Below are positions 47,701 through 50,700 of a stretch of DNA of 61,539 nucleotides, in pieces. Position 1 is the first letter of the stretch. Each line of letters opens with the position of its first letter. This DNA is from Chloroflexota bacterium. GTDB taxonomy: Bacteria > Chloroflexota > Chloroflexia > QHBQ01. The DNA lies in NCBI GenBank assembly GCA_043754535.1, contig JAYUUN010000009.1:1-61539 (forward strand). Reading direction: 5' to 3'. Position numbers: made by a program.

Positions 47701-50700
47701 CCGCCCACCGCGCATCATAGTGCGGGCGTAGTTGACGGGGATGCGCCGTTGCCCTTCCTGGATCAGCACGATACCGATGATGGTAGCGATGCCAATCAGG
47801 ATGAAGATGATGAAGCCGATGAAGTTGCCGACCCCAGCGGTGGAGTTGAACAACTGACCGATTTTGTTCGGTAGGCCCGCGACAATGCCACCGAAGATGA
47901 TGATGCTGACCCCCTGGCCGATGCCATATTCGGTGATCAGTTCGCCCATCCAGACAAGCAGGATAGTGCCAGCGACCATAGCGACCAGCACCGCCCAGCT
48001 AAACAGGCGGTCGGCATTGCCGTCGAGTAGGCCGAACTTGAAGTTGAGCAGGCTGGTGCTGGCACCGAGGGCTGCCCCATTGCTGAACTGGCGCAGGAGG
48101 CCGTAGGCTTCGAGGGCAGCCAGCGGTACGCTGACGTAGTGGGTGATGCGGTTGATCTGGGCGCGGCCCGACTCGCCTTCTTTCGAGAGTTCGGTCAGGC
48201 GTGGGATGATGCCGATCAGCAACTGCATCACGATGGAGGCGGTGATGTAGGGGTAAACCCCCATGGCGATCACCGAGAATTGGCTGAGAGTACCGCCAGA
48301 GAAGACGTTGAGGATGCCGAGAGCCTGGTTGCCCTCGATCACCTTCGCCAGTTCGCTGAGGTTGATACCTGGCACTGGCACGTGGGCGATGAAGCGCACG
48401 AGGATGAGAATGCCGATAGTAAACAGTATCTTGCGTCGCAAGTCGGCGATGCGGAAGGCGTTGAGCGTAGCCTGGAGCATGGAGTGAGGGCTACCTTTCT
48501 AAGTTGACCGGGGGCGAGTTTGCGCCCCTGGCGACTGCTGGTTGCCAGATGGGGAAGCAGCGCGAGCTAGTGGCTTGCGCTGCTTCCTGCTGCTTACTTG
48601 CTGCTGCTGCTGCGAACGCTATCGCAACCTTCGACGATCTGATAGCTGCCATCCTGCTGGCGGGCGATGTTGTGCGCCTTGCCAGAGGTTGGGGCGGGGG
48701 CAAGCTGACCCTCGCGCAGGTAGGGATGGTCGCTGGCGACGGCATTGCTGCCCTCGTGCTTACCCCAAACCACGCTGTCGACCAGGCCGCCGCTAGCATC
48801 AAGTAGGCCCACGCCGCCCCCTTCGAGGCGCATCTGGCCGCCACCCTGTTCGCCCATGCGGGCATCCGGGGTAGCAGGGCAGTCGTAGTCGTTGCCTATC
48901 AGCAGGTAGTGACCGCCCGCCGGGATGATCGTGTCGCTGGCCCACTTGTGCAGGGTGGGGCGCACGGAGGGCTTACCACTGGCCGCCCGATAGTAGAGTT
49001 GGTAGCCATTGAGGTTAACTTCGTTGTCAGTGCCGTTGTAGAGTTCGATGAACTCGTCGTCCTTGCCGTTCGGCCCATCCACGCGGATTTGGCTGATGAA
49101 CAGGCCGCCAGTCAGCTTCGGCATCGCCGTTGCGCCGCTAGTGCTGCTCAGTTCGGCGGGGCTGGCCTGGATGAAGCTAGCCAGGTCGGGGTCGAGGTCG
49201 GCAGCCATCGTCGGCACTTCAGCCACCACAGCCGGGGCTTCTACTTCAGCCGCAGCCGTCGGGGCTTCAACAGCCGGGGCTTCTGCTTCAGCCTCAGCCG
49301 TCGGGGCTTCTACTTCAGCCACCACAGCCGGAGCTTCTACTTCAGCCGCACTCGTAGCAGTCAGGGCTTCAACAGCCGGGGTTGCAGTTACCTGCGTCTC
49401 AGCGGTGGGGGTAGGACGAGCCTTCTTCGGCTTGTCGGAGGCAGCACTCTGCTCCTTCTTGGAGCTAGCCTGCTGCTCCTTCTTGCCAGTGGCAGCCTGC
49501 TGGCCCTTCTTGCTGGTGGGTGCCGGGGTTGCCTCTTGGACGGGGGCATTGGCGGCAGCCTCAGCATCTGCTGCGGCCTTCGCTGCTGCCTCTACCGCTG
49601 CCTCCTCCCGCTTCTGGCGGCGGAGGCGGCGGTTCTCAGTATCGGCGTGTTCCAGTTCGGTAGCAGTGCCACCAGCAGCCTGGATTTTCTGCATCGCGCC
49701 CGCAGTGAAGGCGTGCGCGCTGATATTCATGGGGCGAGTCAGTTCGCCGCTGCCCAGTACCTTGAGTGGGCGATCTGCGTGCTGCGCCCAGCCCAGGTCG
49801 TGCAACAGGGTCGGGGTAATCTCGTCGGTGTCCAGTTCGCTCAGGCGATCCAGGTCCACCGTGTCATAGCGGGTAGTAAACAGACTGTTGGTGAAGCCCA
49901 CGCCCCGCTTGTAGGGCAGCGACTTGATCAGCTTGTTTTGTCCGCCTTCAAACCAGGGCTGGATATTGCCGCCAGTTCTGGCCTTCTGGCCCTTTTGACC
50001 GCGCCCCGAAGTCTTACCTCTGCCGCTGCCATCGCCGCGACCAACCCGCTTGCGCGTCTTACCTGCCCCATAAGGGGCGGTTAGCTCGTGTAGCTTCACT
50101 GCATTGCCTCCTCAGTGCCGATCTCCTCGACATGGACGAGGTGGGCCACCGTCGCTACCATACCACGCACCATCGGAGAATCTTGCTTGACCACAGTCTG
50201 ATGAATCTTGCGGATGCCGAGGGCCACCAGGGTGCGCCGCTGGTTCTCCAGCCGCCCCGCAGAGCTACGCACCTGGGTGATCCGTAGCTGCTTGCCACTA
50301 CTCTGCTTTTCGTTATTAGCGTCCACGATTACCTCCACCACCACCAGCAGCACCACCAGGGCGACCGCCACGCGCACCACCAGGGCCGCCACGACCGCCG
50401 CCAGGGCCGCCACGACCGCCACCAGGGCCACCGCGACCACCAAAGCCAGTGCCAGTGCTACCAGTGCCAGTACCACCAGTGCCAGTACCGCCGCTATCTT
50501 CACCTTCGCCACGCCGACCGCCGCGACCGCCGCGACCGCCGCCACGCTGGTCATTGCGCCCGTTGCGGGGCCGCTCCAACCGCTCGTCGCCAACCGCAGG
50601 GGCAGTAGCAACCGGGGCGTTGGGGTCAACCTTGACCCGCGCTCGCCGCGCCATCTCCTCAACCGGGAGGCCACGCAGTTGCGCGATCTCGTCGGAAGTG

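Follow-up and report, generated by a model that had tools for sequence, protein, structure and literature searches.

A lamin-tail domain on a long C-terminal extension of ribosomal protein uL15 in one genus of Chloroflexia

Bacterial uL15 (RplO; TIGR01071, PF00828) is represented by chain L of PDB 3j3v, with 146 aa, and the ten solved uL15 sequences matched at E ≤ 1e-30 have 131–146 aa. The uL15 of the Chloroflexota bacterium described here is similar in its core (residues 1–147), in the rpmD-rplO-secY position of its gene and in its single copy, but has about 350 extra C-terminal residues that end in a folded Ig-like domain. Low-complexity tails of ribosomal proteins, in the parts available of PMC6821194, are likewise Ala/Glu/Lys-rich, C-terminal and predicted to lie on the ribosome surface, whereas the leash on this uL15 is capped by a folded domain. 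The available part of PMC5071890 places the C-terminal extension of uL15 close to the E site of the spinach chloroplast 50S subunit and describes extensions as mostly exposed to solvent, implying that the tail described here can leave the particle.

Closer counterparts are found among the long forms modelled in NCBIfam, namely the 'sunset domain variant' models of L4 and L20 (NF051449, NF051450), an L20/unknown domain fusion (NF011109) and long L21 (NF008915/6). Judged from model names and lengths, these too consist of a ribosomal protein, an A/E/K/P leash and a small terminal domain, but in the uL15 fusion the terminal domain is a lamin-tail domain (LTD) of secreted origin. What they have in common is the architecture, in which the sole copy of a ribosomal protein bears a disordered leash and a small folded domain, and the resemblance may be one of working but no more. 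None of the NCBIfam sunset, HhH, DUF4332 or 'unknown domain' models matches it at E ≤ 1, and the LTD-bearing uL4 and bL20 proteins described below fall under the cut-offs of the NCBIfam long-form models.

Predictions of what LTDs bind are said to go back to Mans et al. in 2004, as cited by others. The parts available of three reports (PMC6085458, PMC11488536, PMC4486849) treat bacterial LTDs as accessory parts of secreted hydrolases. Their predicted ligands are DNA, polysaccharide or membrane structures, and deletion of an LTD causes partial defects. DNA binding is among the predictions in PMC4486849 and PMC11488536, loss of the LTD slows DNA degradation by ExeM in vitro (PMC6085458), and LTD and HhH alternate on DNases (PMC4486849), again in the parts available. 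The uL15 LTD is of the same long-type subfamily as the N-terminal LTDs of ExeM-type nucleases (LTD-Big_5/OB-EEP) and of ShfP, with about 30–43% identity and the core motif kept, but it is cytoplasmic and C-terminal, without catalytic partner, signal or membrane anchor. Its predicted model has the same β-sandwich as the Ig-fold tails of lamins A/C and B (3jt0, 7dtg, 1ifr) and the DUF4876 protein BT_1938 (4q1z); identity to these is only 12–23%, however, the uL15 LTD has no filament rod, and a common fold shows no function.

Literature searches, excluding most subscription papers and all supplements, gave no account of an LTD on a ribosomal protein, no functional study of ribosomal proteins with tethered extra domains and no established ligand for bacterial LTDs. 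We conclude that the uL15-LTD fusion is real and selected, that it is a tethered add-on of a kind known in databases but little studied, and that the LTD is new as such an add-on.

The rplO gene and its protein

The window, that is, the whole stretch of DNA analysed (61,539 nucleotides), carries an S10-spc-alpha ribosomal cluster on its minus strand, with rplO between rpmD and secY. Its features around rplO are:

47140..48480, minus strand: secY, the downstream neighbour, intact
48553..48587, minus strand: 15-bp hairpin 3′ of the rplO stop, without U-tract, the first of two in the rplO-secY spacer
48594..50099, minus strand: rplO fusion gene (uL15, leash and LTD), 501 aa; open reading frame and profile matches
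48597..49112, minus strand: long-type lamin-tail (Ig-fold) domain, residues 330–501, with the family's C-terminal motif truncated
49113..49403, minus strand: acidic leash of AEVEAP-type 27-nt repeats, residues 233–329, variable in length and nearly unconstrained
49404..49478, minus strand: Lys/Gln-rich disordered stretch, residues 208–232, genus-specific
49479..49649, minus strand: basic, then Ala/Glu helical tail, residues 151–207 (from alignment)
49650..50099, minus strand: uL15 core, residues 1–150 (from TIGR01071)
50107..50113, minus strand: Shine-Dalgarno (SD) sequence GAGGAGG, duplex −11.5 kcal/mol with the canonical anti-SD

The genome-wide survey's note had described a 501-codon uL15 gene in the ribosomal cluster, adjoining secY, that joins uL15, a linker of about 180 residues and a C-terminal LTD in one frame. 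This description holds: the frame at 48594–50099 (minus strand) is intact, with a GTG start, 501 aa and no internal stop, and both Pfam matches are reproduced, Ribosomal_L27A at residues 81–147 (54.4 bits, cut-off 21.5) and LTD (PF00932) at residues 330–446 (56.6 bits, cut-off 34.3). The TIGR01071 rplO profile matches residues 2–146 over positions 1–143 of its 144, with 131.6 bits against a cut-off of 77.95, and an Atlas feature matches LTD at 0.96. There is no further Pfam domain in the protein, and no HhH in Pfam at E ≤ 0.1. The fusion is the sole uL15 match in this genome (89% complete); its frame and its single copy are shown. Its GTG start overlaps the rpmD stop by 4 nt (GTGA); SD energies are given for the canonical anti-SD because the 16S 3′ end was not found in the assembly.

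The spacer between rplO and secY (48481–48593, minus strand; 113 nt) contains two hairpins (z = −4.35), the first of which differs in the second species of the genus by a wobble and one compensatory change. The SD of secY is weak (−4.0). The hairpins could serve mRNA processing or a step-down in expression. The rplO spacer hairpin is not a repeated element, a search for an internal promoter found no promoter-like site, and the coding strand from rplO to secY has no U-tailed terminator.

Beyond the core, residues 151–207 match the tail that closes uL15 in the sister genus (G037, G038, G039), and a low-confidence full-length model from a 7-row alignment (pLDDT 32 overall) places a helix, with pLDDT of about 60 at best, at residues 147–183. 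Repeat family D1 occupies 49217–49367 within the leash. By a polymer estimate, residues 184–329 would measure about 8 nm as a coil and about 50–53 nm when stretched. The Pfam core of the LTD lies at 48762–49112; the domain is present where the note put it, but the extent of 117 aa (residues 330–446) given there is too small, since the family residues E463, R480 and D493 fall past residue 446 and the domain covers about 165 aa (approximately residues 330–495).

A model of the LTD, built from a 28-row alignment (pLDDT 78, pTM 0.83), shows a predicted lamin-type Ig β-sandwich. Its best Foldseek matches are all lamins, with the lamin B1 Ig-fold first (E 3.5e-5), and VIA gives Z 12.1 and rmsd 3.2 over 166 aligned residues for 4q1z and Z 9.6 and rmsd 3.1 over 108 for lamin B1; a sequence search of solved structures with the LTD gave no real match. 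The invariant core residues E349/F350/E352/N355, D441, G446, E463 and R480 are kept. The C-terminal DTxNNxxDF...PxPxN segment is absent, with D493 alone retained and the chain ending CDSVRSSSSK, a loss that could represent decay. The net charge of residues 330–501 is −7, and each of the 15 ribosome-linked LTD cores has a net negative charge (−6 to −13). Since secreted LTDs share this property (median −8), acidic charge alone is not an adaptation.

Is the protein made as one chain, inside the cell? No signal or membrane segment was found in it (maximum KD19 0.99), and all eight ATG or GTG codons at residues 259–340 lack an SD (−4.9 or weaker). Codon use in the LTD stands at the 95th percentile for ribosomal-protein likeness among 1373 background windows, which lends little support because the background consists of mechanically called ORFs and the uL15 core reaches no more than the 70th percentile on the same scale. 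We infer expression as an intact chain and incorporation of the fusion uL15 into the 50S subunit.

Distribution, constraint and origin

Within the order, uL15 is matched in 35 of 40 genomes and the LTD is found only on the uL15 of this genome (G000) and of G036, as the note had claimed in setting them against 33 genomes that match uL15 without LTD. The frame lengths it quoted for those genomes need revision, in that part of the open frames of 168–292 and 648 codons is upstream sequence; a further 28 uL15 ORFs, to which a C-terminal fragment from G039 can be added, were read and end at about 160–200 aa (one is cut by a contig end), and the uL15 of G004 ends at about 183 aa. The unpublished genomes G002–G004 and G027 are counted in these order-wide denominators, and G002, G003 and G004 supply single tree rows; none of the four is a carrier. 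The uL15-LTD fusion is thus confined to two species of one genus. There are 243 uL15 proteins of 275–877 aa; of the 120 listed, nearly all consist of the uL15 domain alone and only these two have PF00932. In a sample of the phylum (150 of about 398 matches listed), 13 frames were read, out of 14 fetched from among the longest, and, judged by eye, have low-complexity tails or are, in one case, a run-through towards secY. One uL15 frame of 777 aa (G597, L109:584-2914, minus strand) overruns the position of secY in another frame, probably through a sequencing frameshift.

Six variants of 501–511 aa (NCBI, Logan, ENA, JGI and GEM; one 90% cluster) have both domains, as does the 530-aa form of the second species, and all seven sequences align end to end. 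A metagenome contig (L102) encodes the same fusion, and a Chloroflexia MAG record (L035) carries it. An artefact or chimera is ruled out by these many independent assemblies and by the 15% synonymous divergence (dS about 0.15 between G000 and G036).

Comparison of the two species, to which all selection estimates apply, shows purifying selection on the LTD at the level of codons. The uL15 core has 17 synonymous and no non-synonymous differences; residues 330–501 have 16.5 and 3.5, respectively (dN/dS 0.058; Fisher p 1.5e-8), and the leash, on few sites, has dN/dS of 0.78–0.94. Each of the seven indels that separate the species has a length divisible by 3, and the probability that an unselected tail would have stayed free of stops is 0.014–0.027. 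For comparison, dN/dS in neighbouring enzyme genes is 0.081 for truA, 0.079 for map and 0.127 for adk, and it is 0.095–0.324 for three secreted LTD paralogues, relative to which the constraint on the LTD of the fusion is not significantly stronger (p 0.13). Highly expressed proteins evolve slowly irrespective of function.

Where did the domain come from? A search of 1.84 billion representatives with the LTD gave 3897 matches at E ≤ 0.001, and among the best 150 only the fusion protein itself exceeds 43% identity. Most of the nearest relatives in that set are LTDs at the N-terminus of secreted proteins, several of which also have Big_5 and EEP nuclease domains, and 31 of the 45 closest have a hydrophobic N-terminus. 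In a 68-row LTD tree the uL15 LTD falls within the long-type clade (support 100/99), on a stem branch that is long in both LTD trees built (0.8–1.8 changes per site), which shows it, by sequence relationship, to be a diverged member of the secreted ExeM-like nuclease LTD subfamily. No donor gene was found, and 77 candidates of 97–310 aa contain no free-standing orthologue; longer proteins with a related LTD reach 43–46% identity at best. Recent copying from one of the genome's own LTD paralogues was rejected as the source: the best tblastn match has E 0.12, blastn gives none, and the three paralogues branch elsewhere in the second LTD tree, built by a quick search and including rows from G002 and G003. 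Separately, similar secreted nuclease-like genes of two genera (L003, G000:C40, and L052, G039:C244) carry different LTD subtypes, which suggests domain swapping.

Lamin-tail domains on uL4 and bL20

The note recorded the uL15 fusion in this genus only, but an LTD on a ribosomal protein also occurs on uL4 in the same order and on bL20 in the same class, by independent capture. In genus g3 of the order, seven of the 22 uL4 tails read (one cut by a contig end; two unread genomes are left out of the count) end in an LTD. The carriers are G008, G014, G019, G021, G023, G024 and G026 (L118, L123, L125, L128, L129, L132, L179), and in G014 the LTD is in tandem, with two copies. None of eight tails read in family f3 has one, and rplD of family f1 likewise showed none. 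In the window, the corresponding gene is:

58916..59797, minus strand: rplD (uL4), 293 aa, with an acidic tail of about 85 aa and no LTD (compared with the sister family)

The uL4 LTD is of the short type, with 24% identity to that of uL15. It shares about 50% identity with the LTD of a secreted protein whose gene lies 8–12 kb from rplD in several genomes, and this gene is its likely donor; a cysteine of the likely donor is absent from the uL4 LTD. On a 29-row uL4 tree, from which unpublished genomes are left out, the carriers stand at two places and require two changes (p-AU 0.0125 for one clade). In G019 the uL4 LTD appears to have been captured separately.

Five genomes of family f10 encode bL20 with a leash and a short LTD, in each case as the only rplT match. 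These proteins surfaced in searches with the uL4 LTD, and their loci are:

L205:940-1770, plus strand: bL20-LTD, G256
L214: bL20-LTD, G286
L215: bL20-LTD, G254
L218: bL20-LTD, G142
L225: bL20-LTD, G262

The combination is rare, since G142 is the one carrier in a 151-genome sample of the class; two further bL20 proteins keep the leash without the LTD. In G284 (L278, about 1501–2230; G284:C8:30329-31059), rplT stops after a run of ten A and the −1 frame encodes a bL20-type LTD without a start of its own, which reflects either an assembly error or slippage, the latter yielding short bL20 alongside the long form. The LTD of bL20 clusters with proteins that lack a signal and are widespread in f10; these combine a short helical N-terminal part with a P/A/K leash and an LTD. 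As these closest relatives are signal-less, LTDs appear to function within the cell in Chloroflexia. The f10 proteins (L208-L213, L216, L217, L220-L224, L226) have 230–430 aa. About 70 aa at their N-terminus are helical, conserved and without a Pfam match, their leash is P/A/K or acidic, and they are possibly granule- or membrane-associated. In G120 such a gene lies 3′ of a probable sugar-phosphate nucleotidyltransferase gene (judged by eye) and 5′ of a protein kinase gene.

In the 68-row tree, in which G004 is one row, the uL15, uL4 and bL20 kinds fall in three subfamilies. Movement of one LTD module among the three proteins was rejected (p-AU 7e-34 for all three together, 1e-5 for uL15 with uL4), the tests using 117 columns and groups set by carrier protein after the tree was seen, so that the p-values are somewhat optimistic. 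Rejection of a single origin by the trees shows at least three, and probably four, captures of LTDs by 50S proteins in this class. All LTD carriers among the ribosomal proteins examined are large-subunit proteins, and uL4, uL15 and bL20 lie close to each other on the solvent side of that subunit. The three cases suggest that the LTD is a recurring add-on to the ribosome, for which we found no earlier description.

The bL21 of G039 (L079:362-1105, plus strand) has an acidic leash and a C-terminal HhH, the latter at 26.8 bits against a Pfam cut-off of 27. In G037 and G038 bL21 has the leash alone, and in G000 (13187–13489 in the window) and G036 it has no tail.

Possible roles of the tethered domain

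Why should a ribosomal protein carry an LTD? We suggest that the gene would be translated as one chain at ribosomal-protein level, with the uL15 part presumably joining the 50S subunit as usual. The uL15 C-terminus would surface on the particle, where a disordered leash of about 145 residues could hold the LTD about 8 nm away. The LTD, captured from a gene of the secreted LTD-nuclease type, has diverged strongly, lost its C-terminal motif and since become conserved. At about one per ribosome, it might grip a non-ribosomal cytoplasmic surface or partner, such as a polysaccharide or lipid granule, a membrane face or a protein, possibly through cations, as the domain is acidic, and would thereby position ribosomes or recruit a factor. 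The acidic charge of the ribosome-linked cores argues against direct nucleic-acid binding and thus favours a non-nucleic-acid surface or partner. Both the binding and the kind of ligand are conjectural, and we give this proposal of a ribosome-tethered acidic module about an even chance of being right. Most relatives have no LTD, so the domain is dispensable at class level, and the three unrelated subfamilies need not share one ligand. That three different 50S proteins of a single class each acquired the same fold points to selection for a function at the ribosome surface, and these LTDs are small soluble domains suited to testing both the add-on role and the ligand.

The LTD might instead be a tolerated passenger or protective cap. 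Similar low-complexity linkers would occasionally recombine and so provide a tail with a small stable domain. This domain would do no more than cap the tail or aid solubility, and would be conserved because abundant proteins, which evolve slowly anyway, must fold. Long tails are common on ribosomal proteins of the phylum, as the 13 long uL15 frames read there and nearly all of the 120 listed of 243 long uL15 proteins illustrate (for tails, see the parts available of PMC6821194); carriers are patchy, an HhH and not an LTD was acquired by bL21 in G039, a genome of the same family, and the likely donor of the uL4 LTD lies 8–12 kb from rplD in several genomes. However, about 350 extra residues per ribosome are costly, yet truncation is not seen in the seven sequences; the LTD is constrained while the adjoining leash drifts, and the same fold was taken at least three times. 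This explanation remains a strong rival, although less likely than the tethered module. If it is correct, the case shows what size of cargo an essential, stoichiometric protein tolerates.

A broader form of the tethered-module proposal, which we offer as a rather doubtful speculation, is that Chloroflexia moved a surface-binding LTD from secreted proteins onto 50S proteins three, probably four, times because it anchors ribosomes to something in the cytoplasm, for instance storage granules or the inner membrane face, with the signal-less LTD proteins of f10 in the same system. If true, the placing of translation in the cell would be encoded in the ribosome itself, by means of the fold used in animals to anchor chromatin at the nuclear lamina.

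Two further explanations seem to us improbable. In one, the leash is cleaved and the LTD acts as a free protein, rplO serving only as a strong expression unit. The leash is indeed long and protease-accessible, and the G284 LTD stands in another frame behind the A10 run; but it has no conserved cleavage motif and is less constrained than any other part of the protein, and no close free-standing form exists among proteins of 97–310 aa. The other takes the LTD as a nucleic-acid-binding arm, comparable to HhH add-ons, that links ribosomes to the nucleoid or to transcripts through DNA or mRNA. Its nearest relatives are accessory domains of extracellular nucleases, and the parts available of two reports support a link to DNA through the slower action of ExeM without its LTD in vitro (PMC6085458) and the alternation of LTD and HhH on DNases (PMC4486849). 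Against this stand the net charge of −7 over residues 330–501 and the acidity of every ribosome-linked core, and the DNA binding of bacterial LTDs is, in those parts, a prediction.

Finally, two products from one frame, or an assembly artefact, are highly improbable: ATG codons at M298 and M326 precede the LTD in both species but have no SD (−1.5 and −1.7, respectively), and a chimera is excluded by the synonymous divergence of 15% and the large number of independent assemblies.

Other ribosomal proteins of this genome also depart from the usual length. In the same cluster, uS5 (50316–51146 in the window) has a Gly/Arg-rich tail of about 100 aa, uS17 (54542–55084) is extended at both ends, and uL16 (55449–55970) has a 40-aa tail that is identical in G036. 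Elsewhere, uS2 (L072, G000:C84; L071, G036:C95) begins with apparent TPIPGQL-type repeats whose copy number differs between the two species.
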